Below are positions 8,512-29,181 of a DNA stretch of 64,000 nucleotides, in pieces; position 1 is the first letter of the stretch, and the number at the start of each line of letters is the position of its first letter. Source of the stretch: Novosphingobium sp. (GTDB lineage: Bacteria > Pseudomonadota > Alphaproteobacteria > Sphingomonadales > Sphingomonadaceae); NCBI RefSeq assembly GCF_041915465.1, contig NZ_JAYSBK010000004.1, positions 13,559 through 77,558 on the forward strand, in the 5' to 3' direction. A program made the translations under genes and the position numbers. The notes beneath the pieces are model-generated. The model was given only the letters and a program-made list of their open reading frames with translations. It had not been told where the DNA came from and made no database searches.

Positions 8512-8586
8512 GCGGGCGTAGCTCAGGGGTAGAGCACAACCTTGCCAAGGTTGGGGTCGAGGGTTCGAATCCCTTCGCCCGCTCCA
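8512..8586 (+). tRNA. tRNA-Gly (anticodon GCC); probable ICE integration site
   Basis: GCGGGCG..CGCCCGC acceptor stem plus encoded CCA, TTGCCAA anticodon loop, GGTTCGAATCC T-loop. Confidence 0.97.
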
Positions 8587-9201: not shown

Positions 9202-9230
9202 TTGCCAATTAAGTCAGGCTAACTTACCAT
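9202..9230 (+). promoter_or_regulatory. Sigma70-type promoter with operator between -35 and -10
   Basis: TTGCCA-N17-TACCAT; contains 21-mer TAAGTCAGGCTAACTTACCAT (9210-9230), related to the sites at 14543, 20096 and 24943. Confidence 0.6.
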
Positions 9231-9273
9231 AAGGCATCTTGACGATAATGAGTCTTTTTCCGTGAGGGGAGCG

Positions 9274-10986
9274 ATGGAGCAGGGAATGATTGAAGATCGG
9301 CACTCAGCGCAGGTGCTGATCGTTGGCGGTGGCATGGTGGGTATGATCGCGGCGCTGGATCTGGCGCAACGCGGGGTGGATGTCATACTCGCCGAGCAGG
9401 ACTCCTCCGAGCCACCCATGGTCCCGCGCGCAAATCACTTGTCGGCGCGGACAATGGAGATTTTCCGTGGTCTCGGTATCGCGGACAAGGTTCGCAGCCA
9501 GGGTCTGCCGGACGGCTTCGCCAATGATGTGGCGTTTGTGACGACCCTAACCGGATACGAGCTTGCACGCCTTCGCATTCCCAGTCGGCGCAAGCGCTTT
9601 AACAGCATCGGCTATATTGATTCCGACTGGCCGACATCCGAACCGGCGCATCGTTGCAACCAGATGTATTTCGAGCCGACGGTTCGCCAGGAAGTCATCG
9701 GCAATCCCCGAATTCGCACGCTCTTTGGGACACGAATCGATAACTTCGAACAGGACGCCGCGGCGGTGTTCGCAACGGGGCGCAATGATGCTGAGAGGAA
9801 GGCGGTTAGCATCCGCGCCGACTACGTGATCGGATGCGATGGTGGCAGCTCGACGGTGCGCAAGAAGATCGGAGGGGTCTTCGAAGGCGTTGACGTCATT
9901 TCCCGCAATCGCATGGCCTTGGTGCGTTCGCCCGAGTTGCTTGGGCGGCTTACTATGGAGCCGGCCTGGATGACTTGGTTCATCCTGCCCGAGGGGCATG
10001 GTTCGGTTCACGCCATCGACGGTAAGGAACTGTGGTGCTTCCACTGCACGCTGCCCGAAGGCGAAGAGGACTTCGAGAAGCTGGATCGCGACAAGGTGAT
10101 CCGGGCGGCGATGGGGCAGGACATACCCTATGAAATCGTTCATACTGAGGACTGGTTCGGCCGCCGCCTGATTTCGGACAGGTTTTCCGATGGTCGCATT
10201 TTCCTGAGCGGCGATGCCTCGCATATCTGGATCCCCATGGCGGGCTACGGCATGAATGCCGGCGTTTCCGACGTCACCAACCTGACGTGGAAGCTGGCGG
10301 CCGTGCTCGATGGCTGGGCCGATCCGGCGATCCTCGACAGCTATGCGGTCGAGCGTCGGCCAGTTACCGAGCAGGTCTCAAAGTTCGTGGCCAACATCGC
10401 CTACGAGAATTACGACGTGGACTTGCGGCAGAACCCGCCGCCGGAACTCTATGAGGACAGTGTCGAGGGTGAAGCAGTGCGCGCCGAGGCGTCGCGCTTC
10501 CTGACCGACGCAAACATGGGCCAGTTCAACTGTCCGGGGCTCAATTTCGGCGCGGTTTACGAAGGATCGTCGATCATCGTCCCCGACGGCGAGGCCCCGC
10601 CGCCGTTCGAGCTGGGCACCTACACGCCCACGACCATCCCCGGATGCCGCACGCCCCATTTTACGCTGGCCGACGGCACGCCGCTCTATGACCGGATGGG
10701 GCCGGGCTATACGCTGCTGCGAACCGATCCCGCCATTGACGTCGCAGCGCTTGTTGCTGCGGCCGAGGCGCGGAGCGTTCCGCTGACCGTGCTGGATATT
10801 TCCGCTGGTGCCGCCGATGGTGCCTATGCGCACAAGCTCGTCCTTTCACGGCCGGACCAATACGTCGCCTGGCGTGGCAATGCCCTGCCCGACGACGTGA
10901 TGGCGCTCGTCGATGTCGTTCGCGGCGTCGTTCCGGCCAATGGCGGAGCCGGACGCAAAGCGGCCCTGGTGGCCACGGCTGGCTGA
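9274..10986 (+). CDS. Single-component FAD-dependent aromatic monooxygenase (PheA/TfdB/RdmE-like, group A)
   Basis: [10 protein letters not shown] Rossmann motif, [28 protein letters not shown] and C-terminal RPDQYVAWR thioredoxin-like domain. Confidence 0.9.
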
Positions 10987-11000
10987 AGCGGAGAAAAGCA

Positions 11001-12011
11001 ATGGGCAACAATCCCAAACTTCGGATCGAGGCCGAGGGCATCAACGGTCTCTGGCCGATCCTGTGCACGCCGGCGAAGGACAATGCGCCGGACTGGTCGC
11101 AGAGCGATACGGTCGACCTCGACGAGACGGCCCGCGTGGTCGAGGCGCTGATCGAAGCGGGCGTCGACGGGCTGCTGAGTCTCGGCACCTACGGCGAAGC
11201 GCACAGCCTCCTCTGGGAGGAAAAGAAGGCCCTTGTCGGCTGCATCCTGGAGACGATCCGGGGGCGCATTCCCTTCTTTGCCGGATCGACGGCGCTCAAC
11301 ACGCGCGAAGTGGTCGCCCAGACGCGTGCGTTCCACGACATGGGCGTCACCGGGACCATGCTCGGCGTGCCGATGTGGTGCAAGGCCGACGTGCCGACCG
11401 CCGTGCGCTTCTATCGGGACGTGACCGAGGCCTGCCCGGATACCGCGTTGGCGATCTATGCGAACAGCGAGGCGTTCAAGTTCGAGTTCGGCCGGCCGTT
11501 CTGGGCCGAGATCGGCAAACTGCCACAGGCAGTCGCGACCAAGTATCTCGGCATCGGGATGCTCGCGACCGATCTCGAACTCGCACCGCGCCTGCGCTTC
11601 CTACCGACCGAAGCCGATTACTATGCCGCCGCGCGGATTGATCCCGAACGGATCACGGCGTTCTGGTCGAGTGGCGCGTTGTGCGGTCCGGCGACGCAAC
11701 TGGCGCTGCGCGACCGCGTCGCGGATGCCAGGCGCACTGGCGACTGGGCACCGGCCAAGGCCGTGGCGGACAAGATCCGCGCGGCCGACGACGGCCTGTT
11801 CCCGAACGGCAGCTTCGCGGACTTTTCCAAGTACAATGTCGGGCTCGAGAAGGGGCGGATGAACGCTGCCGGCTGGATGAAGGCCGGTCCCTCGCGCCCG
11901 CCCTATCATGTCGTACCCGAAGCTTATCTGGAAGGCGCGCAGCGCTCGGGGCGGGCCTTCGCGGCGTTGCACGCGGAGTTCTCGGCGCAAACGGCGGCCG
12001 AACTGGCATGA
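11001..12011 (+). CDS. nahE: trans-o-hydroxybenzylidenepyruvate hydratase-aldolase-like protein (NahE/DHDPS family), copy 1
   Basis: [23 protein letters not shown] and Schiff-base Lys in ATKY. Confidence 0.88.
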
Positions 12012-12074
12012 AGACGAAAGATCGCACGGGCGCGGTTGTGCCCTGGCGGGGTGTCGCGGGGAGGGGAAAGAGGA

Positions 12075-13127
12075 ATGTCCGCAGTTCTCGATAACGACCG
12101 CAAGGCGCAACTGGCCGGGCTGTATGAAGAAATGCAGCCCGACCATCTCTTCCCCCTGTGGGAAGTGCTGGCGAAGCTGGTCGTCCCCGAGCCGCAATCG
12201 CCGGCCATGCCGGCCCGGTGGTCCTATGAAACGATCAGGCGCTTCCTGCTGCGTTCGGGCGACCTGATTTCGGCCGAGGAGGCCGAACGGCGCGTGTTGA
12301 TCCTCGAGAATCCGGGGCTGCCGGGGCAGTCGGCGATCACGCCGCGACTCTATGCCGGCCTGCAACTGATCCTGCCCGGCGAAATCGCGCCCTGCCACCG
12401 GCACAGCCAGTCGGCGCTGCGCTTCGTGATGGAAGGCGAGGGCGCCTATACGGCCGTGGACGGCGAGAAGGCGTTCATGAATCGCTTCGACCTGATCCTC
12501 ACGCCCAACGGCCGCTGGCACGACCATGGGCACCCCGGCAACAAGCCGATGATCTGGCTCGACGGGCTCGACATCCCGATCGTGCGCTACCTCGACGCCG
12601 GCTTTTCCGATCGTCTCGACCAGCCGAGCTTTCCCGAAAGCGCGCCGCCCGCGAGCACGCAGATGCACTATGGCCGCAACATGCGCCCGGTTCGCTCGAT
12701 GGCCGCCGCCGACAAAGCGCCCGACGTGCCCTTGTTCCACTATCCTTACGCGCAATGGTCCGAGGCGCTTGCCGCCGTCTCGGCGCATGACGCACCCGAT
12801 CCTTGGCTCGGCCACGCGCTCGAATTTCTCAACCCGGCCGATGGCGGACCGGTGATGGCGACCGTCTCGGTCGGTGTGCGGCTGATCCCGGCGGGCTTCG
12901 AGACCGGCCTGCGGCGCTCGACCGAAGGCGCCGTCTACGTCGTGGTCGAGGGGGCGGGACAGGTCGAGGTGGACGGCACGGCCATCGAACTGGCCGCTGG
13001 CGACATCGTCGTCGTGCCGAGCTGGTGCGCCGCGCGCTGGCAGGCGCGCCAGCAGCTCGTGCTGTTCACCTATTCCGATCGCGGCGTGCTGGAAAAGCTC
13101 AAACTCTACAAGGAAGCCCTTGCATGA
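12075..13127 (+). CDS. gtdA: Gentisate 1,2-dioxygenase (bicupin)
   Basis: AERRVLILENPG, APCHRHSQSALRF, WHDHG and WLDGLDIP motifs. Confidence 0.92.
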   Translation: MSAVLDNDRKAQLAGLYEEMQPDHLFPLWEVLAKLVVPEPQSPAMPARWSYETIRRFLLRSGDLISAEEAERRVLILENPGLPGQSAITPRLYAGLQLILPGEIAPCHRHSQSALRFVMEGEGAYTAVDGEKAFMNRFDLILTPNGRWHDHGHPGNKPMIWLDGLDIPIVRYLDAGFSDRLDQPSFPESAPPASTQMHYGRNMRPVRSMAAADKAPDVPLFHYPYAQWSEALAAVSAHDAPDPWLGHALEFLNPADGGPVMATVSVGVRLIPAGFETGLRRSTEGAVYVVVEGAGQVEVDGTAIELAAGDIVVVPSWCAARWQARQQLVLFTYSDRGVLEKLKLYKEALA

Positions 13128-13819
13128 CCCTTCTGTTCGCGCCGCCGCCGCCGGTTCTCGTGCCGACCTCCGACGGGCATGACTATCCCGTTCGGCGCAT
13201 ATTCTGCGTAGGCCGCAACTATGCGGAGCACGCCCGCGAGATGGGATTCGATCCCGATCGCGAGCCGCCGTTCTTCTTCACCAAGTGGGCCGAGACCGTG
13301 GTCCTGTCGGACGCTGCCGTGCCCTATCCGCAGGCGACGTCGGACTTCCAGCACGAAGTCGAACTGGTGGTGGCGATCGGGAGCAGCGGTCGCGACATTC
13401 CCGTCGATGCGGCGCTCGACCACGTCTGGGGCTATGCCGTCGGGCTCGACATGACCCGGCGCGATCTGCAGATGGCCGCGCGCGCCAAGGGGCGGCCCTG
13501 GGATACCGGCAAGAACGTCGAGGCGTCCTCGCCGATCGGCACGCTACATCCGCGCGCCGCGCTCGGCGATGCGGCGAGCGGCACCATTGGCTTGACTGTC
13601 AACGGTGCGGTCCGCCAGAGAGCCGATCTTTCCATGCTGATCTGGAGCGTGCCCGAGGTCGTGGCCTTCCTGTCCGGCCTGTACCGGCTCGAGCCGGGAG
13701 ACCTGATCTATACCGGTACGCCCGCCGGTGTCGCGCCGGTGGTTGCCGGCGACGTGCTCGAAGCCAGCATTGCCGGCCTTGCACCGTTGCGCGTCACGAT
13801 AGCCCCCCCCGCGCCATGA
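13124..13819 (+). CDS. Fumarylpyruvate hydrolase (FAH family, NagK-like)
   Basis: RRIFCVGRNYAEH, HEVELV, DMTRRDLQ and DLIYTGTPAGV motifs. Confidence 0.9.
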   Translation: MTLLFAPPPPVLVPTSDGHDYPVRRIFCVGRNYAEHAREMGFDPDREPPFFFTKWAETVVLSDAAVPYPQATSDFQHEVELVVAIGSSGRDIPVDAALDHVWGYAVGLDMTRRDLQMAARAKGRPWDTGKNVEASSPIGTLHPRAALGDAASGTIGLTVNGAVRQRADLSMLIWSVPEVVAFLSGLYRLEPGDLIYTGTPAGVAPVVAGDVLEASIAGLAPLRVTIAPPAP

Positions 13820-14469
13820 CAGGGCCAGTCGCCAACGGCGCCTTGACGCTGCACGGCTATTTCCGGTCGAGCGCTTCGTGGCGCGTGCGGATCGCGCTGG
13901 GCCTGAAGGGGCTGGCCTACGAGCAGCGGACATATCGGTTGCGCGAAGACGATCACCGCAGCGCGGAATTCCTCTCGATCAACCCGCAAGGGCTTGTGCC
14001 GGCCCTTGAGGTTGGTGGGATGGTGCTGACCCAGTCGCTCGCGATTTGCGAATATCTGGATGAGGCGGTGCCCGAACCGCCGCTGCTTCCTGACGGACTC
14101 GTCGAGCGAGCGCTGGTGCGGGCCTTCGCCCAGGTGATCGCATGCGACATTCATCCGGTGCAGAATCTCAAAATTCTGCGCCGACTCAGTTCGCTCTGCG
14201 TTGACGATGCGGCGGTGCAGGGCTGGGCGCGCGACGTCATCGGCGACGGACTGGAGGTTTGCCTGCGCCTTCTGCCCCGGGAACGCGGGCGCTTCTGCTT
14301 CGGCGACTCGCCAACGCTCGCGGACATCTGCCTAATTCCGCAGATGGCAAATGCACGGCGCTTTGGTGTCGAAATGATCTGGCCCGCTCTCGAGAGCATC
14401 GAACAGCATTGCATGGCGCTGCCTGCCTTCGCCGATGCCGTTCCCGGTCAACAACCAGATTGCGAATAA
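13816..14469 (+). CDS. maiA: Maleylpyruvate/maleylacetoacetate isomerase (GST zeta, NagL-like)
   Basis: YFRSSASWRVRIAL, NPQGLVP and CDIHPVQN motifs. Confidence 0.92.
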   Translation: MTGPVANGALTLHGYFRSSASWRVRIALGLKGLAYEQRTYRLREDDHRSAEFLSINPQGLVPALEVGGMVLTQSLAICEYLDEAVPEPPLLPDGLVERALVRAFAQVIACDIHPVQNLKILRRLSSLCVDDAAVQGWARDVIGDGLEVCLRLLPRERGRFCFGDSPTLADICLIPQMANARRFGVEMIWPALESIEQHCMALPAFADAVPGQQPDCE

Positions 14470-14529
14470 TATCAAGCCATAACGATATATTACGAATCTG
14501 TCGGGGCAGCTGGGCATCGAGAAAAATAT

Positions 14530-14594
14530 GTCAGGAAACCATATGGTCAGGTAACCTTTCTATATTGACGAAAGGACCGGAACTGGGGTAATCT
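14530..14594 (+). promoter_or_regulatory. Promoter with operator upstream of the meta-cleavage operon
   Basis: GTCAGGAAACC (14530) and ATGGTCAGGTAACCTTTCTAT (14543-14563) directly before TTGACG (14565)-N18-TAATCT. Confidence 0.65.
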
Positions 14595-14662
14595 TGAACA
14601 GTAGGAAAGCCGCCCTGGCTCGCATTGGAGCCGACAAGAACAAGGGCGGACGCTGGAGGAGG

Positions 14663-14956
14663 ATGGCTGTGAGCAGCTATACGATTGAGAGCATTCTCTT
14701 TTCCCTGCAGTCGGATCCAGACTTCATGGCGCGGTTCAAGGCCGATCCTGAAGCCTCGATTCGCGACTATCCGCTGCGCGACGACGAAAGACAGGCGATC
14801 CTCGATTGGGACGTGCGGGCGATGTCGGATGCCGGCGTCAGCGCCATGTTGCTGATGGTCGCCTTTACCGCGCTCAACGGCCAGCAGGCGATGCCTGACT
14901 ACATGCGGCGCATGAACATGCCCCCCTTGCGGCAGATCGCCAGCGTAACGGCATAA
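14663..14956 (+). CDS. LigA-like small (alpha) subunit of a class III extradiol dioxygenase
   Basis: 97 aa; RFKADPEASIRDYPLRDDERQAILDWDVRAM..GVSAMLL matches the LigA pattern; directly upstream of the LigB-like gene; RBS GGAGGAGG. Confidence 0.8.
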   Translation: MAVSSYTIESILFSLQSDPDFMARFKADPEASIRDYPLRDDERQAILDWDVRAMSDAGVSAMLLMVAFTALNGQQAMPDYMRRMNMPPLRQIASVTA

Positions 14957-14982
14957 GAATAAGGCGGAGAAGGAAACGGGAA

Positions 14983-15816
14983 ATGGCTCAGATCGTCGGT
15001 GGCTTCATTATGCCGCATGCACCCCACTCGGTGGCGACGCCACCGGCCCCGCCGCCGCAAGATAAGTTGGAAGCGTGCCAAGCGGCATTCGATCGGGTCA
15101 AGGAGCGCATACGGGAACTGGAGGTCGATACCGTCATCGTCATCGGTGATGACCATTACACTTTGCATGGCCCACACTGCATTCCGTCGGTCCTGATCGG
15201 GATTGGCGACGTATCTGGGCCGGTTGAACCATGGCTCGATGTACCGCGCGTACCGATCGTGAACAACGAACCGCTGGCGCGTCACATCATGAGTCATGGC
15301 CACAATCATGGTGTGGACTGGGCCTACGCGAAGTCGATGGTTCTTGATCACAGTTGCTATGTTCCATGGCATCACGCGATCCGCGGACTGGACGGCATCA
15401 GCATGATCCCAGTCTATCTAAACGCGGGCGTCGATCCGCTGATCCCGACGCGCCGGTGCTACGAAGTCGGTCAGGCAGTTGCTCGCGCTGTTGCCGAATA
15501 TGAAGGCGCGGACCGGGTCGCGATCTACGGTACTGGCGGCATGAGCCACTGGCCAGGAATGGCGCGGATGGGGCAAGTCAACGAGGAATGGGATCGCCAT
15601 CTCGTCGAATTGATCCGGGGCGGCGACGTCGAGGCGCTGATCGCACTGTCCGATCAGGCAATCCTTGCCGACGGCGGCAACGGCGGGCTCGAGCTGAAGA
15701 ACTGGGTTTGTGCGATGGGCGCCTTCGGCGAATGCACCGGCGACATCATCGCCTATCAGGCGATGTATGAATGGGTGTGCGGTTGCGCCTGGGCGGAACT
15801 GAAGGAGGCCGCATGA
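14983..15816 (+). CDS. Class III (LigB-family) extradiol ring-cleavage dioxygenase, PhnC-like
   Basis: MPH, GDDH, LDHS, GTGGMSHWPG and GGLELKNW metal and catalytic motifs. Confidence 0.9.
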   Translation: MAQIVGGFIMPHAPHSVATPPAPPPQDKLEACQAAFDRVKERIRELEVDTVIVIGDDHYTLHGPHCIPSVLIGIGDVSGPVEPWLDVPRVPIVNNEPLARHIMSHGHNHGVDWAYAKSMVLDHSCYVPWHHAIRGLDGISMIPVYLNAGVDPLIPTRRCYEVGQAVARAVAEYEGADRVAIYGTGGMSHWPGMARMGQVNEEWDRHLVELIRGGDVEALIALSDQAILADGGNGGLELKNWVCAMGAFGECTGDIIAYQAMYEWVCGCAWAELKEAA

Positions 15817-16427
15817 CCGACATTGTCTTCTATTTCGATTTCGGCAGTCCCTACGCCTATTTCGCCCGGCACAAGCTGGTCGAGATCGCCGCGCGGCATG
15901 GCTGCGGGATCGACTATCGTCCGATCGACCTGAAGCGCGCGAAGCTGGAGAGCGGTAACAATGGCCCGCCGACGGTGGCAATCCCCAACAAGCTGGCTTT
16001 CGCGAACAGGGATTTCGCGCGCTGGGCCGAACGGTATGGGGTGCCGTTCAAGTCGATCGGCGGGATCGAGGGCGTGCGCGAGCTCAATATCGGCGCGCTT
16101 TATGCGCTGAACCGGGGGCAGGGCGCGGCCTATATCGAACGTGTATTCGATCATTGCTGGGGCCATGGCGGCCGGCCGGACGACCAGGCATTCGTGGCCG
16201 GGCTGATCGCCGACATGGGCTGGGATGCCGACGATTTCCGCGCTTTCGTGGCCAGCGACGCGGCTGCCGCGAAGTACGAGAGCGTATTCCAGCTTGCCGT
16301 GGCCGATCACGTGTTCGGCGTGCCCGCTTTCGTGATCGGCGACGAGCTGTGGTGGGGCAACGACCGGCTGTTCATGGTCGACGAATACCTCGCCGAACGG
16401 GCGCCAGCGGTTCAGGCCGCCGGGTAA
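15813..16427 (+). CDS. nahD: 2-hydroxychromene-2-carboxylate isomerase (GST-kappa/DsbA family)
   Basis: FYFDFGSPYAYF, VFGVPAF and WWGNDRL motifs. Confidence 0.9.
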   Translation: MTDIVFYFDFGSPYAYFARHKLVEIAARHGCGIDYRPIDLKRAKLESGNNGPPTVAIPNKLAFANRDFARWAERYGVPFKSIGGIEGVRELNIGALYALNRGQGAAYIERVFDHCWGHGGRPDDQAFVAGLIADMGWDADDFRAFVASDAAAAKYESVFQLAVADHVFGVPAFVIGDELWWGNDRLFMVDEYLAERAPAVQAAG

Positions 16428-16443
16428 CATTCTGGAGAATGCA

Positions 16444-17448
16444 ATGACGAAGCGCCTTCGCGCCCCTGCCGACATCAATGGCGTCTGGGCCATCATTCCG
16501 ACGCCGGCCACGCCCGATGCGGGGGATTGGCGCGCGACCGACACGGTCGACGTCGACGAGACCGCGCGCATTGTCGAACTGCTGATCGAGGGCGGCATCA
16601 GCGGCATCCTCTCGATGGGAACGCTCGGCGAGTGCGCGACGCTGACCTGGCCGGAAAAGCAGAAGTTCATGGCGGCGCTGGTGGAATCGGCGCGCGGACG
16701 CGTGCCGGTCTTTGTCGGCACGACCGCGAGCAATACGCGCGATACGATCGAGCAGTCGCGCTATGCCTATGACCTTGGCGCCGATGGCACGATGCTGGGC
16801 CTGCCGCATTGGTGTGCGATCTCGTTGCCCAACGCCGTGCAGTTCTATCGCGACGTTGCCGAGGGCGTTCCCGACCTCAACATCGCCGTCTACGCCAATG
16901 TCGAGGCGTTCAAGTTCGACTTCCCGACGCACTTCTGGGCGCAGATCGCCGACATCCCGCAAGTCGTGACGGCCAAGTACAGCGGCCCCGCCACCCTGCT
17001 GCAGGATCTCCACGCGGTGCAGGGCAAGATCAAGTTCCTGCCCAACGAATACGCCTATTACGGTTGCGCGCGCATGGACGACCGGATCGACTCGTTCTGG
17101 TCGAGCGGCGCGGTCTGCGGTCCCAACGTCGCGATCAGGCTCTACGATCTTGTCGCCGAAGCGCGGCGCACGGGCGACTGGAGCGCGGCGCAGGCCTTCG
17201 CCGGACGGCTGGGGCCTTCGGGAGCAGTGCTGTTCCCCGAAGGCAGCTTCAAGATCTTCTCGACCTACAACATCGCGCTCGAGAAGGTCCGCATGGCGGC
17301 GGGCGGGCTGATCAATCCCGGCCCGGTGCGCCCGCCCTATCGCATCACGCCCGAGCCCTATCTGCAGGGCGCGCGCCGCTCCGGCGAAATGTGGGCGGAA
17401 ATCTCGAAGAGTCTGATTGCCGACGAACAGACCGTCGCGGCTGAGTGA
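16444..17448 (+). CDS. nahE: trans-o-hydroxybenzylidenepyruvate hydratase-aldolase, copy 2
   Basis: GVWAIIPTPA, GTLGECATL, YANVEAFKF and TAKY; follows nahD. Confidence 0.9.
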   Translation: MTKRLRAPADINGVWAIIPTPATPDAGDWRATDTVDVDETARIVELLIEGGISGILSMGTLGECATLTWPEKQKFMAALVESARGRVPVFVGTTASNTRDTIEQSRYAYDLGADGTMLGLPHWCAISLPNAVQFYRDVAEGVPDLNIAVYANVEAFKFDFPTHFWAQIADIPQVVTAKYSGPATLLQDLHAVQGKIKFLPNEYAYYGCARMDDRIDSFWSSGAVCGPNVAIRLYDLVAEARRTGDWSAAQAFAGRLGPSGAVLFPEGSFKIFSTYNIALEKVRMAAGGLINPGPVRPPYRITPEPYLQGARRSGEMWAEISKSLIADEQTVAAE

Positions 17449-17467
17449 AGCACAGGAAAGGCAGATC

Positions 17468-18982: not shown

Positions 18983-19012
18983 ACCGCGGGTTCCATCGAA
19001 AGGATCTGATTG

Positions 19013-20053: not shown

Positions 20054-20095
20054 CTGGGGCTGCGGCGATACGGGTTCTCGACTTTATTCGTCAAT

Positions 20096-20116
20096 ATAGA
20101 CAGGCAGCATGATCAT
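20096..20116. promoter_or_regulatory. Operator copy upstream of the TonB-dependent receptor
   Basis: ATAGACAGGCAGCATGATCAT; the minus strand continues TCTATATTGAC, as at 14559-14569. Confidence 0.55.
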
Positions 20117-20196
20117 CTGGCTATCTTCCAGAATTGGCGGGAGCCGCGATCGGAACGAAGCAGACATTCCAAGCAAGTGACATTGGGGAGGAAAAC

Positions 20197-22602: not shown

Positions 22603-22726
22603 ATGGCGTGTCTATGACGGCACGCTTGTCCGGGGCAAATTGCGCAAGCGGGTGTCCCAGGTTGACCAAAAGCCTGGGACAACGCAGTCTGGCGCTCGTT
22701 CGCATTCAGCTAATGATCATGATGTA

Positions 22727-23215
22727 ATGAGCAAGACGGAAAAACCAGCCACTCCAGCCCTTTCGGTCGGCGATCTGGCATGGCGTCATCGCAGTATGGC
22801 GCGCCTGATGAACCTGGCCGTCCAGCGCCAGCAGGAGCGCGTGATCGCGCTGATGGTCAGCGCGGGTTACACCAAGATGCGGCTTGCCCACGTCAACCTG
22901 ACGCGCAACCTCGATCTGGAAGGGAACACGATCACCGAACTGGCGTTGCGCGCGGCGATGACCAAGCAGGCGATGGGCGAACTGGTCGATCAGTGCGAGA
23001 AGATCAGGATCGTCGAACGGACGGCCGATCCTAAGGATCGGCGCGTCTGGATCGTCAAGTTCACCGATCGCGGCCTTGACTGGCTGAACGAGCTCAAGAA
23101 GGCGGTCGACCGAGTCGAGGCCGAAATGGTCGGCGTCGTCGGCGCGGAGGACTTCCACACGATCGCCGCAGCGCTGATGACCTACAATCGCACCGAGCTT
23201 CCGCCGATCGAATAG
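22727..23215 (+). CDS. MarR family transcriptional regulator
   Basis: ITELALRAAMTKQAMGELVDQCE..VER.ADPKDRR winged-helix motif. Confidence 0.9.
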   Translation: MSKTEKPATPALSVGDLAWRHRSMARLMNLAVQRQQERVIALMVSAGYTKMRLAHVNLTRNLDLEGNTITELALRAAMTKQAMGELVDQCEKIRIVERTADPKDRRVWIVKFTDRGLDWLNELKKAVDRVEAEMVGVVGAEDFHTIAAALMTYNRTELPPIE

Positions 23216-23324
23216 CGACGGCACGGATGTGAGGCATTGCCAACGTCGCGACCGGACCCGCAGGCGGCTCGCCTGCACCGATCCGGTCGCGACGCCGCTT
23301 TCCGCTTCAGTCCCCGCTTTCGCT

Positions 23325-24425
23325 TCAGTCCATGCGCAGGACGGGCTTGACCGCCGTGCCCTTCTCGGCATCGGCGATCGCATCGTTGATCGCCGCGAAG
23401 GAATAGTAGCTGATCAGCCGGTCGAACGGGAATCGGCCTTCGCGCCACAGGCCGATCAGGCGGGGAATGAGCTGCTGTGGATCAGCGCTGCCTTCGACGA
23501 TGCCCATGACCGCGCGCCCGCCCGACATCAGATAGGTCGTATCGAGATCGAGCTTGCTGCCCGGCGGCATCGCTCCGATCAGGCCGCACTTGCCGCGCGG
23601 TGCAAGTGCCGCGACCGCCGTGTGAATCACCCCGAGATTGCCGGTCGTGTCGAGCACGTAGTCGACGCCGACGGGCGAGATCGCGTTGATCGCTTCGAGC
23701 ACGTCCGACGTGCCGGCATTGATGGTGTGCGTCGCGCCAAGGCTGGTGGCCAGCTCCAGGCGATCCGCGTTGAGGTCCACGGCCATGATCGCCGCCGCGC
23801 CCACGACCCTGGCGGCCATGATCGCGCTGAGACCGACCGCGCCGACCCCGAACACCGCGATCGAACGCCCTGCGCGCAATTCGAGGCTGTTGAACACCGA
23901 TCCGGCGCCGGTCAGCACGCCGCAACCCAGCGGGCCGAGCATGTGAAGGTCGAGATCCTTGTCGACCTTCACGACGTTGCGTTCGTTGCACAACGCGTGG
24001 GTCGCGAACGACGACTGGCCGAAGATGTTACCGTGCACCGGACCAGAGGCACCCGAAAGCGGCGTCGAGCCGTCGAGCCGCGCTCCAAGGATGTTGAGCG
24101 GAAAGAAGGCGTGGCAATAGCTCGGCGCGCCATCGACGCAGGCGGGACAGCGCCCGCAGCTATTGAACGACATGACCACGTGATCACCCGGTTCGACCGA
24201 CGTCACCGCCGCGCCGACTCGCTCGACGATGCCGGCGCCTTCGTGGCCGAGGACGGCGGGATGTGGCGTAGGCAGGGCATGGTCGCGCATCACCACGTCG
24301 GTGTGGCAGATGCCGGTGCCGACCACGCGCACGAGGATCTCGTCCGCGCGGGGGTCCTCCAGCTCAAGCTCCTCGATGTCCATCGGCGCGTGTGCCGCAT
24401 GCGTGACGGCAGCCTGAATTTTCAT
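23325..24425 (-). CDS. Zn/NAD-dependent aryl-alcohol dehydrogenase (XylB-like)
   Basis: GICHTD, LGHEGAG, structural CGRCPAC..C, PLGCGVLTGAG, GVGAVG and AVKPVL motifs. Confidence 0.9.
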   Translation of the reverse strand: MKIQAAVTHAAHAPMDIEELELEDPRADEILVRVVGTGICHTDVVMRDHALPTPHPAVLGHEGAGIVERVGAAVTSVEPGDHVVMSFNSCGRCPACVDGAPSYCHAFFPLNILGARLDGSTPLSGASGPVHGNIFGQSSFATHALCNERNVVKVDKDLDLHMLGPLGCGVLTGAGSVFNSLELRAGRSIAVFGVGAVGLSAIMAARVVGAAAIMAVDLNADRLELATSLGATHTINAGTSDVLEAINAISPVGVDYVLDTTGNLGVIHTAVAALAPRGKCGLIGAMPPGSKLDLDTTYLMSGGRAVMGIVEGSADPQQLIPRLIGLWREGRFPFDRLISYYSFAAINDAIADAEKGTAVKPVLRMD

Positions 24426-24494
24426 AGCCTTGAGCCTCTTCCAAGTATCCTGGGGAACTGTCGTGTCGGGACCGGACGCCCGCCCGCCTTGTGG

Positions 24495-24848
24495 TCAGCC
24501 GTCCGGCCGGCCCGCGGATCCATCAGGCGAGGCGATGGTAATCCATCCATCCTCGATCTCGACCGGGTAGGTGCGCACGGGCGTCTGGCAGGGAAACACC
24601 ATCGCTTCGCCGGTACGGATATTGAACGCGCCGCCGTGGAACGGGCACTCGATCTGGCCGCCGTCCTGAAAACCCTCGCTCAGCAATCCGTTGCCGTGGG
24701 TGCATTGGTTGTCGGTCACGAAATAGTCGCCGTCGATCTCGTAAACCGCCAGCGACGGAAAACCGTCGAGGTCGATCGCGACGGGCGCGCCTTCCTCCAC
24801 GTCGGTTGCCGGGCAGAGCCGGACACGATCTGCGGTCGAATTGTGCAA
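24495..24848 (-). CDS. Rieske [2Fe-2S] ferredoxin
   Basis: CTHG..IECPFHGGAF motif. Confidence 0.93.
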   Translation of the reverse strand: MHNSTADRVRLCPATDVEEGAPVAIDLDGFPSLAVYEIDGDYFVTDNQCTHGNGLLSEGFQDGGQIECPFHGGAFNIRTGEAMVFPCQTPVRTYPVEIEDGWITIASPDGSAGRPDG

Positions 24849-24928
24849 ATGCAGGCCTCTGTCTCGCCATGGGCCGGCCTTGCTGGCCGATGCCCTTCGG
24901 AACGAGCAATGATGGACTCGGAAATTTT

Positions 24929-24971
24929 TGTCAAGCCGTAGGATAGTCAGGCAACCTTTCTATACTTGACA
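24929..24971. promoter_or_regulatory. Divergent promoters sharing one operator
   Basis: TTGACA on the minus strand (24929-24934) and plus strand (24966-24971) flank ATAGTCAGGCAACCTTTCTAT (24943-24963). Confidence 0.65.
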
Positions 24972-25068
24972 TAGCTTCAGCGCCTTGGCAGGTTTCGGTT
25001 CGGATCGGGGAAAGCCCCGGCGTTGGCCGGGCCTGTCGTCGGCCGTCAAGGTTGAGGAGATGGAGCAG

Positions 25069-26457
25069 GTGAGCGCTGATATGAATGGCCGGTCCGGTCC
25101 GCTTGACCGGATCAGGGACGGGCTGGACGCCTGGCTGCTGAAGGACGAGGCATCGGGCCGCTATCGGCTCGATCGCGAAGTCTTTACCGACCCGGACCTG
25201 TTCGAGCTCGAGATGAAATACATCTTCGAGCGCAACTGGGTCTTTGTCGCGCACGAGAGCCAGCTTCCCCATACCAATGACTTCCTGGCGACCTATGTCG
25301 GCCGGCAGGCGGTGTTGCTGACGCGCGACCGGCAGGGCAAGCTCGGCTGCTTCATCAATGCCTGTGCGCATCGCGGCGCGCGCGTCTGTCGCCAGCGTCG
25401 CGGCAACAGCCGCAACTTCACCTGTCCATTCCATGGCTGGACCTACGGTAGCAACGGCGCGCTGCTCGACGTGACGGACGAGGCGGAAGGCGGTTACGCT
25501 CAAGGGTTCGACCGCAAGGATCTGGGGCTCGAACCGGTGGCGCGGCTGGAATCCTATCGCGGCTTCCTTTTCGCCAGCCTTTCGCCCGATGTGCCGCCGC
25601 TCACCGATTATCTCGCGGGGGCGACGACATTCATCGACCTGCTGATTGACCAATCCCCGACCGGCGAGCTGGAAGTGCTGCGCGGTTCCACGCGCTATAC
25701 CTACAACGGGAACTGGAAACTGCAGGCCGAGAACGGGCTCGATGGCTATCACGTGGGCTCAGTTCACGGCAACTACGTGATGACGGTGATGCGCCGGGTC
25801 AGCGGCGATTCGTCGAATGACACGCGCACATTCGACTTCACCAAGGTGCCGCAGGCAGAAGGCGGCTTCTTCTCCTTCGACCATGGCCATGCGGTGCTGT
25901 GGGTCGACTATGCCAATTACCGCGACCGGCCGAATTTCGAGCTGCTCGAGGTGCTGCGCGAAAAGCGGGGCGAGCAGAAGGCGAAGTGGATGACCGAGCG
26001 GCTGCGCAACCTGCTGCTGTTCCCCAACCTGTTCCTCATGGACCAGACCAGCACGCAGTTGCGCATCATCCGGCCGATCTCGGTCGACGAGACCGAAGTG
26101 ACGACCTATTGCATCGCGCCGGTCGGCGAGAGCGCCAGGGCGCGGGCAATCCGCATCCGCCAGTACGAGGATTTCTTCAACGCCAGCGGCATGGCGACGC
26201 CGGACGATCTGGCCGAGTTCAACAACTGCCAGATCGGCTTCGGCCGTGGCGGGGGGCGTTACAACGACATGTCGCGCGGTGCTGTGCGCTGGGTGCAGGG
26301 GGCGGGCAAGTATGGCGCGGACCTGAACGTCAACGCGGTGATGAGCAGTTCGGCGCCGGCGGACGAGGGCCTCTACATCTCGATCCACGACGACTGGGCG
26401 AACCGGATGAAGGCCGCCGTCGACCGGGAAATGCTCGACCGGGAGGACGCGGAATGA
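25069..26457 (+). CDS. Ring-hydroxylating dioxygenase alpha subunit, benzoate/toluate/anthranilate 1,2-type (BenA/XylX-like)
   Basis: NACAHRG..TCPFHGW Rieske site, NWKLQAENGLDGYHVGSVH, IRQYEDFFNASGMATPDDLAEF; start uncertain (25060, 25069 or 25081). Confidence 0.92.
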   Translation: MSADMNGRSGPLDRIRDGLDAWLLKDEASGRYRLDREVFTDPDLFELEMKYIFERNWVFVAHESQLPHTNDFLATYVGRQAVLLTRDRQGKLGCFINACAHRGARVCRQRRGNSRNFTCPFHGWTYGSNGALLDVTDEAEGGYAQGFDRKDLGLEPVARLESYRGFLFASLSPDVPPLTDYLAGATTFIDLLIDQSPTGELEVLRGSTRYTYNGNWKLQAENGLDGYHVGSVHGNYVMTVMRRVSGDSSNDTRTFDFTKVPQAEGGFFSFDHGHAVLWVDYANYRDRPNFELLEVLREKRGEQKAKWMTERLRNLLLFPNLFLMDQTSTQLRIIRPISVDETEVTTYCIAPVGESARARAIRIRQYEDFFNASGMATPDDLAEFNNCQIGFGRGGGRYNDMSRGAVRWVQGAGKYGADLNVNAVMSSSAPADEGLYISIHDDWANRMKAAVDREMLDREDAE

Positions 26458-26948
26458 GTGTCGACGATGCCGGCTGGTTGTCGGTGCAGCGGTTTCTGGC
26501 GCGCGAGGCGCTGGCGCTCGATGACAAGGACTGGGACGCCTGGCTGGCGCTCTACCTGCCCGAAGCGGAATACTGGGTGCCCGCCTGGGACGATCTCGGT
26601 GGGCTCACCACCGATCCGCAGACCGAGATCTCGCTCATCTACTACCCCAATCGCGGCGGCCTGGAAGATCGGGTCTTCCGCATCCGCACCGGCCGGTCTT
26701 CCGCGACCATGCCGCTGATGCGGACCTGCCACACGTTCACTCTGCTCGATGTCGAACAGCGTGACGGTGGGGTGCGCGCCCGGACGTCATGGACCGTGCA
26801 GTCGTTCCGCGAGACGGACACGCTCACCTACTTCGGGCATGCGGATTATGATCTGGCGAAGCACGACGAGGGATGGCGGATTGCGCGCAAGAAGACGATC
26901 GTCCTCAACGACATCGCCCGCTCGCTGCTCGACATCTACAGCATCTAG
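26454..26948 (+). CDS. Ring-hydroxylating dioxygenase beta subunit (BenB/XylY-like)
   Basis: EYWVPAWDD..TDPQTEISLIYYPNRGGLEDRVFRIRTGRSSAT motif. Confidence 0.92.
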   Translation: MSVDDAGWLSVQRFLAREALALDDKDWDAWLALYLPEAEYWVPAWDDLGGLTTDPQTEISLIYYPNRGGLEDRVFRIRTGRSSATMPLMRTCHTFTLLDVEQRDGGVRARTSWTVQSFRETDTLTYFGHADYDLAKHDEGWRIARKKTIVLNDIARSLLDIYSI

Positions 26949-26957
26949 GCGGCTGGC

Positions 26958-27944
26958 ATGATGGACCCGCATCGTCCGGTCGTGGGGACGGTCATCGGCG
27001 ATCCCGCCGGTATCGGGCCGGAAGTCGTCGCCATGGCGCTGACCAGCGGCCGCGTGCACGCCTGCTCGGTCCCGCTGCTGATCGGAAGCGCCGCCGCGAT
27101 GGAGCGCGCGGTCATGGCGACCGGCGGCACTGCGCGGGTCCGCGCGATGCGCAGCGTCGAGCCGCTGAGCGACGATCCCGCGATCATCGACATCCTCGAT
27201 ACCGGCGCGCTGCCGGACGATGATCTGCCGCTGGGCGAAGACACCGCGCGTGGTGGCGAGGCGACGGCGCAGTGGCTCGACGAGATGGACCGGCTAGCGC
27301 GCGACGGGACCATCGCGGCCACCGTGCTTGCCCCTATCAGTACCGGATCGCTCAAGCAGGTCGGCAAGCTTTCCAAGGTCATCAGTCCGGCGCCGGGCGA
27401 GACCTATCTGGTGCTCGTCACCGGGCCGTTGCGTGTCGCGCACCTGACCGACCACATGCCGCTGCGGCAGGTCTGCGAGATCATCACCCCCGACCTGATC
27501 CTGCGCGCGTTGCGTGCGCTTGATGCGGCGATGCGCGGTTGGGGACTACCACGGCGACGAATCGCGGTTGCGGGACTCAATCCACACGCCGCGGGCAGCG
27601 AGGAGCTTGACGGCATTGCGCCCGGCATCGAACGCGCGCGCGCCGAGGGGATCGACGCCATTGGCCCGGAGAGCCCCGACGCGGTGTTCCGCCAGTGCAT
27701 CGAGGGCCGGTATGACATGGTGCTCGCGATGTATCACGACCAGGGACACATCGCGGTCAAGACTTGGGGCTTTTCCGGCAACAGCGTGATCATGGTCGGC
27801 GCGCCCTACATCCATGTCTCCGTCGCGCACGGCACCGCCTACGACATCGTCGGAACGGGCAAGGCCGATCCGGCGATGATGCTCAATGCGATGCGCATCG
27901 GCGGCACGCTCGCGAGCGGCGCGGGCTTCCCGGACGATGTCTGA
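26958..27944 (+). CDS. PdxA-family dehydrogenase; candidate decarboxylating cis-dihydrodiol dehydrogenase (TphB-like)
   Basis: GDPAGIGPEV, VAGLNPHA, MYHDQGHI and SVAHGTAYDIVG motifs; co-transcribed with the dioxygenase genes. Confidence 0.8.
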   Translation: MMDPHRPVVGTVIGDPAGIGPEVVAMALTSGRVHACSVPLLIGSAAAMERAVMATGGTARVRAMRSVEPLSDDPAIIDILDTGALPDDDLPLGEDTARGGEATAQWLDEMDRLARDGTIAATVLAPISTGSLKQVGKLSKVISPAPGETYLVLVTGPLRVAHLTDHMPLRQVCEIITPDLILRALRALDAAMRGWGLPRRRIAVAGLNPHAAGSEELDGIAPGIERARAEGIDAIGPESPDAVFRQCIEGRYDMVLAMYHDQGHIAVKTWGFSGNSVIMVGAPYIHVSVAHGTAYDIVGTGKADPAMMLNAMRIGGTLASGAGFPDDV

Positions 27945-29181
27945 CAGCGTTCCCGAAAGCATCGCGATCGTCGGCGCCAACCTTGCCGGCGGCCGTGCCG
28001 CGGAGGAGCTGCGACGGTCTGGGTACGAAGGCAGGCTGGTGCTGATCGGGGAAGAACCCTGGCCGCCCTACGAACGCCCGCCGTTGTCCAAGGAATTCCT
28101 GTGGAACGGCGGCGTGCCGCCCGACCCCTTCTTCCTGCACGACGAGGCTTGGTATCGCAACAATGCCATCGACGTGCGGCTTGGCATGCGGGCCGACGCG
28201 CTCGATCTGGCCGGCGGCGGCGTGCAGCTCGCATCGGGAGAACTGGTCCGCGCCGATCGCATCATGCTGGCGACCGGTGCAAGCGCGCGGCGCTTGCCTG
28301 TTGCCGGTGCTGAGGCCGAAAACGTTCATCACCTGCGTACCCGAAGCGATGCCGAAGGACTGGTCGCCGCGCTGAGGCCCGGCGCGCGCATCGTCGTCGT
28401 CGGGATGGGTGTCATCGGTGCCGAAATCGCCGCGAGTGCGCGCAAGCTCGGCTGCGAGGTCACTGCTATCGAGCCGGGGGCTGCACCGATGGCGCGGATG
28501 CTGGGCGCGCGCTTCGGGACCTGGCTGGCCGGGCTGCACGAAGCACAGGGTGTGTCGCTGCGGCTGGGCGTCGTGCCCGAGGCACTGGTGGTCGACGACG
28601 GCTGGGTGCGGGCGGTCGATTGCTCGGACGGCAGCCGCGTGGACTGCGACGCGGTCGTGGTCGGCATCGGCGTCGCGCCGCGCGTGGAACTGGCGCGCGC
28701 CGCGGGCATCGCGACCGGCAACGGGATCATCGTCGACCGGGCCTGTCGCACCAGCCACCCCGCTGTCTTCGCCGCGGGCGACGTTGCCGATCAGCCCGGC
28801 TTCTTCGGCGGACGGGCGCGGCTCGAAACCTTTCAGAACGCATCCGATCAGGCGACGGCGGCGGCGCAGGCGATGCTGGGCCGTCCGGTCGAATACGTGA
28901 GCTCGGGCTGGGCCTGGACCGACCAGTACGACGTCAATCTCCAGGTCGTCGGACGGGTCGGGGACGGTTTGTCCACGGTCATCAGGGGCTCTGCCGAAGC
29001 GCGCGATTTCTCGGTCTTCTGCCTTGAAGGAAATGTCGTGGTAGGCGCGTTGACGGTCAATCGCCCGCGCGACATGAGCGCCGGCCGCCGTATGGTTGAG
29101 CGCCGTCATGTCGTGGACCGGGCGATGCTGGCGGACGAGGCGGTTCCTCTCATGCAGGTGCTCAAGGCGGCCCGCGGGTGA
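27937..29181 (+). CDS. Glutathione-reductase-type ferredoxin reductase
   Basis: IVGANLAG, PYERPPLSK, VVVGMGVIGAE, FAAGDVA and WTDQYD motifs. Confidence 0.92.
   Translation: MSDSVPESIAIVGANLAGGRAAEELRRSGYEGRLVLIGEEPWPPYERPPLSKEFLWNGGVPPDPFFLHDEAWYRNNAIDVRLGMRADALDLAGGGVQLASGELVRADRIMLATGASARRLPVAGAEAENVHHLRTRSDAEGLVAALRPGARIVVVGMGVIGAEIAASARKLGCEVTAIEPGAAPMARMLGARFGTWLAGLHEAQGVSLRLGVVPEALVVDDGWVRAVDCSDGSRVDCDAVVVGIGVAPRVELARAAGIATGNGIIVDRACRTSHPAVFAAGDVADQPGFFGGRARLETFQNASDQATAAAQAMLGRPVEYVSSGWAWTDQYDVNLQVVGRVGDGLSTVIRGSAEARDFSVFCLEGNVVVGALTVNRPRDMSAGRRMVERRHVVDRAMLADEAVPLMQVLKAARG

Follow-up and report, generated by a model that had tools for sequence, protein, structure and literature searches.

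We analysed a 64-kb window of Novosphingobium sp. (contig NZ_JAYSBK010000004.1), the whole stretch of DNA to which all coordinates below refer, and found in its catabolic region (9274-29181) a naphthalene-type ring-cleavage module, a gentisate operon and an operon for an XylX-clade Rieske dioxygenase lying together. We propose, with our confidence evenly divided, that the region specifies a single pathway, under MarR control, for aromatic acids with fused rings, the simplest being 2- or 1-naphthoate together with methylnaphthalene precursors. We are much more confident of a narrower reading, namely that LigAB-NahD-NahE-aldehyde dehydrogenase (ALDH) and gentisate 1,2-dioxygenase (GDO)-MaiA-FAH form a naphthalene-ring-to-gentisate pathway. 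None of the enzyme families is new, and close counterparts have been described for two of the three modules. The novelty lies in the combination of genes, in the fact that it is conserved as a rare regulon, located here on an integrative and conjugative element (ICE), and in the predicted route.

Genes were identified by open reading frame (ORF) calling guided by third-codon-position GC content (GC3), and families were assigned by Pfam, NCBIfam and PDB searches (Table 1). The family assignments are firm, and every enzyme named for 9274-29181 in a preliminary description of this DNA was found again, each with a hidden Markov model or PDB match. That description had also stated that a polycyclic aromatic hydrocarbon (PAH)-type dioxygenase and a short-chain dehydrogenase/reductase (SDR) dihydrodiol dehydrogenase are absent, which holds for the 64-kb window: tblastn searches with PhnAc/Ad, the SDRs PhnB and HcaB, NagGH, BphC, BphA1c and XylE gave only weak cross-matches on the XylX-like gene. 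No type-I extradiol enzyme was found in the window either. Three fuller copies of the gene set were compared, namely the window, metagenome contig SRR26147846_6402 (L002/L007) and the Novosphingobium metagenome-assembled genome (MAG) STE_139 (L008, L014), together with a further metagenome contig (L041) that holds a fragment of the set.

The extradiol dioxygenase of the ring-cleavage module is a two-subunit LigAB enzyme, and the earlier label "PhnC-like" proved correct. Its catalytic subunit LigB is 58% identical to that of a Paraburkholderia phn cluster with the gene order of the RP007/C3/FM-2 type and 60% identical to that of Burkholderia sp. BC1, and its small subunit LigA is 52% identical to the small ORF preceding PhnCb in locus L005. 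In the phn cluster, phnCa and phnCb encode the extradiol dioxygenase for PAH diols (PMC12472010). The NahD isomerase is 45% identical to PhnD of L005 and 70-73% identical to its orthologues in the metagenome contig and the MAG. The two hydratase-aldolases, NahE1 and NahE2, are ~50% identical to each other. NahE1 shares 75% identity with NahE of the BC1 cluster and 80-90% with its orthologues in the metagenome contig and the MAG, and NahE2 shares 87-92% with its own. Both scored below 70 bits to DapA, and by full-length similarity both are far nearer NahE than PhdJ; a role for either as a PhdJ-type carboxybenzalpyruvate aldolase was rejected on this ground. The ALDH is 61% identical to an ALDH encoded beside a diol dehydrogenase gene on a plasmid of Sphingobium fuliginis KK22 and 32% identical to PhnF. 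We also rejected LigAB as a protocatechuate 4,5-dioxygenase, since the genes ligC/I/J/K are lacking and its neighbours are NahD and NahE.

In the gentisate operon, GDO scored above its equivalog cutoff, and the FAH gene lies directly between the GDO and MaiA genes. The best PDB match of this bicupin protein was GDO (2d40, 327 bits), followed by salicylate dioxygenase (2phd, 218 bits). Identification as a 1-hydroxy-2-naphthoate or salicylate dioxygenase was rejected because the protein is nearest to conventional GDO and sits with MaiA and FAH.

In every copy where it was seen, a class A flavin monooxygenase (FMO) gene heads the gentisate operon and adjoins NahE1; orthologues in the metagenome contig and the MAG are 69-71% identical and occupy the same first position. 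The protein (570 amino acids) belongs to the PRK06126 subfamily, with RebC as its nearest solved relative and the phenol-hydroxylase types TfdB and HbpA among its relatives. NCBIfam and PDB searches placed it in no named hydroxylase equivalog, and a recognised gentisate-forming hydroxylase was not found in the window, neither 3-hydroxybenzoate 6-hydroxylase nor NagGH. The FMO is a candidate for hydroxylation para to a phenol group, either as a salicylate 5-hydroxylase or as a decarboxylating 4-hydroxyisophthalate hydroxylase. It may also hydroxylate salicylaldehyde at position 5, or benzylidenepyruvate ahead of NahE1. More distant homologues, found in transposon contexts or in unrelated surroundings, offered no hint of its function. 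In a JGI metagenome (L010, 57-9680), a 59% identical homologue lies near a NahD-like DSBA gene whose product is 50% identical to the window NahD, along with genes for a type-I extradiol dioxygenase, a flavin reductase and an acyl-CoA-dehydrogenase-like oxygenase. The locus is a further uncharacterised aromatic cluster with an FMO of this subfamily.

The set of ~20 genes recurs in the metagenome contig and in the MAG, with a fragment in the further metagenome, and the gene orders differ. The nearest LigB relatives (74-81% identity) lie in clusters of the same content. In SRR26147846_6402 all genes are contiguous, running FMO-NahE1-GDO-FAH-MaiA, then the alcohol dehydrogenase (ADH) and ferredoxin genes in reverse orientation, and then alpha-beta-PdxA-reductase-LigA-LigB-NahD-NahE2-ALDH-VanA-TonB receptor-MarR-major facilitator superfamily (MFS) transporter. 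In STE_139 the set is split over two contigs, and L041 carries a cut ORF, probably the PdxA-like gene, followed by reductase-LigAB-NahD-NahE2-ALDH-VanA. The metagenome contig and L041 thus share the order Rieske oxygenase-PdxA-reductase-LigAB, in which the dioxygenase module directly adjoins LigAB. The encoded proteins are 59-92% identical to those of the window, with the highest conservation in the two NahE paralogues. Because gene orders and flanks differ, the set is held together by selection and not by recent common descent of one segment. No catechol-pathway genes were found in the window or in the copies examined (L002/L007, L008, L014, L041), and PhnAcAd, the PhnB SDR and NagGH were absent from the same sequences, the best window match of the PhnAcAd and PhnB queries being a 31% cross-similarity on the XylX-like alpha subunit. 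The VanA-type oxygenase, used as a marker, has a relative of 77% identity in STE_139 and otherwise none above 38% across 185,579 species genomes and none above 43% on plasmids. The cluster is rare, given that this marker has so few relatives.

A conserved box of ~30 bp, GATAGTCAGG...TTTCTaTA.TTGAC, precedes the TonB receptor gene and both the LigAB and the dioxygenase operon in each of the three fuller copies (compare ATGGTCAGGTAACCTTTCTATATTGAC at ligA with GATAGTCAGGCAACCTTTCTATACTTGAC at the alpha gene). In an unbiased 12-mer count, the core AGATAGTCAGGT was present with at most two mismatches in nine of 12 upstream regions from the three organisms, and in the control, 30 shuffled sets gave at most 3-4 regions with a core. 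With the box in common, the three modules therefore act like a single regulon, and co-regulation of the receptor gene with the LigAB and dioxygenase operons gains support; the MarR protein of the cluster may be the factor that binds the box. The expectation in the preliminary description that the operons are co-regulated is supported to this extent and less so for the FMO operon, where the box is weak. A consensus scan for sigma70 promoters and terminators was uninformative, returning fewer sites than in shuffled sequences. A second, partial half-site of the box, ATATGTCAGGAAACCATATG, lies at 14524-14545, directly upstream of the main ligA box, and the same tandem arrangement occurs in the Novosphingobium MAG (TCAGGGGTCCATATGGTCAGGTATCC).

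The dioxygenase alpha subunit belongs to the sphingomonad XylX clade, within the BenA/XylX family, whose enzymes are directed by a carboxylate. It is 65-67% identical to its counterparts in S. fuliginis KK22, 61-62% to those in S. yanoikuyae SJTF8 and Novosphingobium ES2-1, 51% to XylX of pWW0, ~45% to AntA and 31-35% to PhnAc, NagG and BphA1c. Its own orthologues are 71% (metagenome contig) and 84% (MAG) identical, and the window and metagenome alpha subunits look like a separate sub-branch, with 71% mutual identity and 61-66% identity to XylX. Both alpha and beta scored below the BenABC equivalog cutoffs, and the cluster has no BenC- or BenD-type gene; pWW0, for comparison, carries both. Mapping of the substrate pocket onto naphthalene dioxygenase (NDO) gave an alignment that reached only NDO residue 335, and a difference near the iron ligands (NYV in the window and metagenome proteins vs NYF in three sphingomonad XylX proteins) is too weak to use. 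In a megablast search of the whole region against plasmids, the sole match was the xylXY-pdxA stretch of S. fuliginis KK22 (72%). A PdxA-family gene directly follows xylXY in three of three sphingomonad plasmids (L001, 16782-17798; L011, 7933-8883; L012, 10933-11925). These genes are annotated as 4-hydroxythreonine-4-phosphate dehydrogenase, and their products are 69-70% identical to the window PdxA-like protein. The gene in this position after xylXY probably encodes the XylL-type decarboxylating diol dehydrogenase that has been missing in sphingomonads, and a functional study of it was not found in the literature.

We infer from sequence which substrate is used, in which direction flux runs and what the FMO, the VanA-type enzyme and the second NahE do, and the resulting pathway would be as follows. 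The VanA-family Rieske monooxygenase, fed by the ferredoxin and reductase of the cluster, would hydroxylate a ring methyl group, which the XylB-type ADH and the XylC-type ALDH would oxidise to a carboxylate; alternatively, free naphthoate could enter through the TonB receptor. The XylXY-clade enzyme, which we propose to be a carboxyl-directed 1,2-dioxygenase acting on naphthoate, would place O2 on the carboxyl-bearing carbon and its neighbour. The PdxA-family protein, a proposed decarboxylating cis-diol-carboxylate dehydrogenase analogous to XylL and TphB, would then oxidise and decarboxylate the cis-diol acid to 1,2-dihydroxynaphthalene. Ring cleavage by the PhnCaCb-type LigAB and isomerisation of the chromene by NahD would follow, after which a NahE would release pyruvate and salicylaldehyde, the latter being oxidised to salicylate by the ALDH. 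The FMO would add a hydroxyl group para to the phenol to form gentisate, a step unneeded with a 6-hydroxy substrate. Finally, GDO, maleylpyruvate isomerase and fumarylpyruvate hydrolase would yield fumarate and pyruvate.

The chemistry of NahD and NahE requires an o-hydroxyaryl-2-oxobutenoate, which arises only from a diol beside a ring fusion. Because of this, and because the copies carry no catechol-pathway genes, the simplest assumption is 1,2-dihydroxynaphthalene as the diol and a naphthoate as the acid; 1- and 2-naphthoate would yield the same diol. The preliminary description had combined a carboxyl-directed dioxygenase with a decarboxylating dehydrogenase, and this logic is coherent, plausible and somewhat strengthened by the conserved gene set and the shared box. 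A naphthalenesulfonate substrate was rejected, as the dehydrogenase would then be superfluous.

For the first step, the VanA-type enzyme is proposed to be a methyl-group monooxygenase or an O-demethylase using the ferredoxin and reductase of the cluster; its match to DdmC does not separate the two activities. DdmC uses a separate ferredoxin and reductase. The oxygenase of a VanAB/TsaMBCD-type pair is present, and no class IA FMN/2Fe-2S reductase (TsaB/VanB type) to pair with it was found among the window ORFs scanned with Pfam and NCBIfam. The ADH gene lies directly downstream of the ferredoxin gene in the same orientation. The TonB receptor, and the MFS transporter encoded in the metagenome copy SRR26147846_6402, suit an anionic substrate. 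It should be noted that neither is diagnostic, because classic sphingomonad PAH clusters carry such receptors too.

Several points weigh against the proposed naphthoate pathway. The alpha subunit is about equally far from the benzoate/toluate-active XylX proteins (61-67%) and from its metagenome orthologue (71%), its sequence alone carries no sign of altered specificity, and alpha-beta may simply be a benzoate/toluate dioxygenase. The pairing of a BenAB/XylXY-type enzyme with a PdxA-family gene, which the preliminary description had taken as a peculiarity of this cluster, is normal in sphingomonad xylXY modules. A PAH dioxygenase elsewhere in the genome could feed LigAB, since sphingomonads scatter their catabolic genes and share electron carriers. 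The two well-conserved NahE paralogues (~50% identity) exceed the needs of a simple naphthoate pathway. The subfamily of the FMO (PRK06126, RebC-like) is uncharacterised, we know of no flavin-type 5-hydroxylase for free salicylate, and the box has 3-4 mismatches in the upstream regions of the FMO operon. Furthermore, the only aerobic 2-naphthoate route described biochemically, to our knowledge, is that of Burkholderia JT1500. Like the window prediction, it starts with 1,2-dioxygenation. According to work by Morawski from 1997, however, it reportedly dehydrates the diol acid to 1-hydroxy-2-naphthoate and continues via phthalate, whereas the window genes are predicted to decarboxylate it to 1,2-dihydroxynaphthalene and to proceed through salicylate and gentisate. 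We know of no genes assigned to the JT1500 pathway.

The main alternative is that the region is a mosaic of independent modules. XylXY-PdxA would then be nothing more than a usual benzoate/toluate dioxygenase whose catechols are handled elsewhere, and LigAB-NahD-NahE-ALDH with the gentisate genes would be a naphthalene/phenanthrene lower pathway fed by an outside PAH dioxygenase and diol dehydrogenase. The identity of alpha to sphingomonad XylX, and of the PdxA-like protein to the product of the gene that always follows xylXY in bph/xyl/nah clusters, fits this explanation. The nearest relative with tested activity, XylXY of Sphingobium PNB, oxidises benzoate and p-toluate when served by a Rieske ferredoxin and a reductase that it shares with other oxygenases, and sphingomonads are known for dispersed catabolic genes and shared ferredoxin and reductase components (PMC4048848). 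However, the full set travels together over several lineages despite rearrangement, on an ICE here and with other flanks elsewhere, the same conserved box stands before the dioxygenase and LigAB operons, and no copy examined has a catechol cleavage pathway or a PAH dioxygenase. We consider the mosaic unlikely, while giving it serious weight. Should the dioxygenase take benzoates only, the region would be an ordinary mosaic of sphingomonad catabolic modules.

In a more far-reaching version of the naphthoate pathway, the cluster would be the first genetic blueprint for an aerobic TOL-like route of alkylnaphthalenes and naphthoic acids, and its intended substrates would be naphthalenes with substituents at positions 2 and 6, for example 2,6-dimethylnaphthalene, 6-methyl- or 6-hydroxy-2-naphthoate and 2,6-naphthalenedicarboxylate. 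After TOL-like oxidation and removal of one side chain, the VanA-type/ADH/ALDH trio would convert a 5-substituted salicylate to 4-hydroxyisophthalate, the FMO would form gentisate by decarboxylative para-hydroxylation, and the NahE pair would serve substituted and unsubstituted benzylidenepyruvates. The preliminary description had carried C6 of 2-naphthoate to C5 of salicylate, and this is chemically correct by our atom mapping, under which a 6-hydroxy substituent would give gentisate directly, a 6-methyl substituent 5-methylsalicylate and a 6-carboxy substituent 4-hydroxyisophthalate. We regard this far-reaching version of the pathway as distinctly improbable, and the use of 2,6-naphthalenedicarboxylate (the monomer of the plastic PEN), methoxy or naproxen-type substrates is speculation. 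Literature text searches for naproxen clusters and naphthalenedicarboxylate degradation gave nothing relevant.

Hydroxylated naphthalenes could enter the pathway at a different point. The FMO would then make 1,2-dihydroxynaphthalene from a naphthol (carbaryl-type) or, by decarboxylating hydroxylation, from 1-hydroxy-2- or 2-hydroxy-1-naphthoate, and the Rieske enzyme would be a salicylate 5-hydroxylase. Class A flavin hydroxylases act on phenols, as the relatives TfdB and HbpA illustrate, and the NahE and LigB of Burkholderia sp. BC1 are similar to NahE1 and LigB of the window. In a 2014 study by Chowdhury, this strain is said to degrade 2-hydroxy-1-naphthoate through 2-naphthol and gentisate, and the BC1 cluster might encode its naphthol-to-gentisate route. 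It is speculation that the likeness of NahE1 to the BC1 aldolase hints at a preference for a 5-hydroxylated substrate. Three-component Rieske salicylate hydroxylases do exist in sphingomonads (PMC4048848). However, the window alpha is BenA/XylX-like (589 bits to BenA) and only 34-35% identical to NagG and the salicylate hydroxylase BphA1c, the PdxA-type dehydrogenase would have no role after monooxygenation, the FMO shares its operon with the gentisate genes and not with LigAB, and the ADH and the VanA-type oxygenase would be left without function. Such an entry is thus very unlikely.

Least probable of all is a route for larger or hetero-fused substrates (methylphenanthrene, methylanthracene, or carboxylates of dibenzothiophene or dibenzofuran) in which the module runs twice, the NahE pair serves successive rings and the FMO decarboxylates and hydroxylates a hydroxynaphthoate: this would account for the two conserved NahE paralogues, and PhnC-type enzymes of phn clusters do take both naphthalene and phenanthrene diols while the FMO analogue NahG converts 1-hydroxy-2-naphthoate to 1,2-naphthalenediol (PMC12472010), but there is a single extradiol enzyme, a single isomerase and a single ALDH, gentisate would still require a 5-hydroxylation with no assigned enzyme, and little besides the NahE pair is explained.

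Among known systems, the phn/nag clusters of Burkholderia sp. RP007, C3 and FM-2 (phnR-S-F-E-Ca-Cb-D-Ac-Ad-B with nagGH-nagI-maiA) resemble the window cluster in having a two-subunit LigAB followed by a DSBA isomerase, a NahE-type aldolase, an ALDH and a gentisate lower pathway, with identities of 58% for LigB, 60-64% for NahE and 45% for NahD. The Paraburkholderia loci run in the order sigma54 regulator, LysR, ALDH, aldolase, small LigA-like ORF, LigB, DSBA isomerase, PAH dioxygenase alpha and beta, SDR. Unlike them, the window cluster lacks PhnAcAd, the PhnB SDR and NagGH, its ALDH is distant from PhnF, its regulator is of the MarR family instead of the sigma54/LysR type, and it adds the XylXY-PdxA module, the VanA-type oxygenase, the ADH, the FMO and the second NahE.

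LigAB-NahD-NahE is also physically fused to gentisate genes in Burkholderia sp. BC1 and related contigs (L003, 1955-7318; L004, 18-7811), where genes for an ALDH, a Rieske dioxygenase, a Fer2 ferredoxin, a reductase, NahE, LigAB, NahD, GDO, FAH and MaiA occur together. As in the window, no NagGH or salicylate 5-hydroxylase is visible on the BC1 contigs seen. However, the BC1 oxygenase is not BenA-like (~35% identity) and is served by a plant-type ferredoxin, and the BC1 cluster has no PdxA-like, VanA-type, ADH or FMO gene.

The dioxygenase operon has its counterparts in the xylXY-pdxA modules of pNL1-type plasmids, S. yanoikuyae, Sphingobium PNB and S. fuliginis KK22, which share the order alpha, beta, PdxA, the Rieske ferredoxin and the glutathione-reductase-type reductase (61-67% identity for alpha, 63% for beta and 69-70% for PdxA). 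Those modules sit between bphC and salicylate hydroxylase/xylE meta-pathway genes and serve benzoate and toluates (PMC4048848). In contrast, the window module is tied to LigAB-NahD-NahE and the gentisate genes, and it is flanked by the genes for the ferredoxin and ADH and by the edge of the ICE.

The proposed logic of methyl to alcohol, aldehyde and acid, followed by carboxyl-directed dioxygenation, decarboxylating dehydrogenation and extradiol cleavage, is that of TOL plasmid pWW0 (xylMA-B-C, xylXYZ-L, xylE), with which the window also shares an XylB-like ADH and an alpha subunit 51% identical to XylX. Unlike pWW0, the window has a VanA-family Rieske enzyme in place of XylMA, a PdxA-family protein in place of the SDR XylL and no BenC/XylZ reductase, and its ring-cleavage enzymes are of the naphthalene type and not of the catechol type. 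The terephthalate system TphA2A3-TphB likewise has a Rieske dioxygenase acting at a carboxyl-bearing carbon, and its decarboxylating diol dehydrogenase is a PdxA-family enzyme. However, the window alpha is far nearer BenA than TphA2 (104 bits), and the window PdxA-like protein is nearer PdxA2/D-threonate-4-phosphate dehydrogenases (186 bits) than TphB (110 bits).

Aerobic degradation of naphthoate and dimethylnaphthalene is known from physiological descriptions of the 1980s and 1990s. No paper describing genes for aerobic naphthoate mineralisation or a naphthoate dioxygenase was found in our literature text searches, a gap that a conserved, self-transmissible cluster would fill if the proposed pathway is true. 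If confirmed, the pathway would also assign a first function to the PdxA-like gene that follows every examined sphingomonad xylXY, and it could bring to light a way of making gentisate that depends on a flavin enzyme. In the breakdown of alkylnaphthalenes and PAHs, naphthoic acids typically appear as dead-end or signature metabolites (PMC8006333).

Table 1 Features of the catabolic region and its surroundings in the 64-kb window.
Feature	Position	Strand	Evidence or remark
tRNA-Gly (GCC), probable ICE insertion site	8512..8586	+	ARAGORN; housekeeping genes to the left (Pfam)
Weak copy of the shared box, AAGTCAGGCTAAC ... TTGAC, before the FMO-gentisate operon	9208..9246	+	3-4 mismatches to core
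Class A FMO with C-terminal thioredoxin-like domain	9274..10986	+	FAD_binding_3 and Rng_hyd_C; PRK06126, 619 bits vs cutoff 445
NahE1, trans-o-hydroxybenzylidenepyruvate hydratase-aldolase homologue, within gentisate operon	11001..12011	+	502 bits to NahE 6dao/9frt, 273 to PhdJ
GDO, bicupin	12075..13127	+	TIGR02272, 464.5 bits vs cutoff 442.1
FAH-family hydrolase, probable fumarylpyruvate hydrolase	13124..13819	+	Orthologue in L002/L007 has Pfam FAA_hydrolase
MaiA, GST-type maleylpyruvate/maleylacetoacetate isomerase	13816..14469	+	TIGR01262, 246.6 bits vs cutoff 171
Shared box ATGGTCAGGTAACCTTTCTATATTGACGAA before ligA	14540..14572	+	Upstream comparison
LigA-type small extradiol subunit (PhnCa-like)	14663..14956	+	Pfam LigA; ORF opens at 14594, likely start 14663
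LigB-type catalytic subunit (PhnCb-like), proposed 1,2-dihydroxynaphthalene extradiol dioxygenase	14983..15816	+	Pfam LigB
NahD/PhnD, DSBA/kappa-GST-type 2-hydroxychromene-2-carboxylate isomerase homologue	15813..16427	+	Pfam DSBA, 144 bits
NahE2, second hydratase-aldolase	16444..17448	+	410 bits to NahE, 254 to PhdJ
Aromatic ALDH (sphingomonad XylC/NahF-like)	17468..18982	+	Aldedh, 555 bits
VanA/DdmC-family Rieske monooxygenase	19013..20053	+	Rieske and VanA_C; best PDB match DdmC, ~145 bits
Shared box, inverted, upstream of TonB receptor gene	20087..20125	-	Upstream comparison
TonB-dependent outer-membrane receptor	20197..22602	+	Plug and beta-barrel; 61-70% in L002/L014
MarR-family regulator, candidate binder of shared box	22640..23215	+	Conserved in L002 and L014
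Compound hairpin between convergent marR and adh	23245..23293	.	Read from sequence
Zn-dependent aryl-alcohol (benzyl alcohol, XylB-type) dehydrogenase, ADH	23325..24425	-	370 bits to Acinetobacter benzyl alcohol dehydrogenase 1f8f
Rieske-type ferredoxin	24495..24848	-	55% to KK22 ferredoxin
Shared box GATAGTCAGGCAACCTTTCTATACTTGACATAG in divergent ferredoxin/dioxygenase promoter region	24940..24975	+	Upstream comparison
Rieske dioxygenase alpha subunit, sphingomonad XylX clade	25060..26457	+	BenA TIGR03229, 589 bits vs cutoff 781
Dioxygenase beta subunit	26454..26948	+	TIGR03232, 175 bits vs cutoff 226
PdxA-family NAD-dependent dehydrogenase	26958..27944	+	PdxA, 234 bits; TphB 4aty, 110 bits
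Glutathione-reductase-type ferredoxin-NAD+ reductase	27937..29181	+	Pyr_redox_2 and Reductase_C; HcaD/AndAa-like
Truncated Old-Yellow-Enzyme fragment, right cargo edge	29178..29633	+	151-aa ORF; Oxidored_FMN profile positions 2-64 of 342 only
LysR-family regulator	29843..30739	+	In none of the related loci: no tblastn match in L001-L007, none in L008/L014
trbI, first gene of ICE conjugation block	30951..32156	-	TrbI, 212 bits

The preliminary description had placed the region on an ICE, and the surroundings agree: genes of a Trb type IV secretion system, a coupling protein and a relaxase (trbI/G/F/L/E/B, traG, a DUF3363 relaxase and RepA) lie to the right of the cargo, and a tRNA insertion site lies to its left. 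No integrase was found among the window ORFs scanned and no second copy of the tRNA 3'-end in the window, and the element extends past base 64000. It is reasonable to regard the region as a catabolic cargo of ~20 kb on an ICE beside tRNA-Gly. The Old-Yellow-Enzyme fragment at the junction of the cargo with LysR-trbI is probably a recombination scar. Between trbB and traG (40666-49123) are four large genes that do not belong to the backbone, one of them an ORF of 996 amino acids at 40666-43656 in the GC3 bias scan. The hairpin at 23245-23293, which a simple T-run scan missed, has outer arms GTCGCGACCGGA / TCCGGTCGCGAC around GCAGGCG-GCT-CGCCTGC and is possibly a bidirectional terminator.

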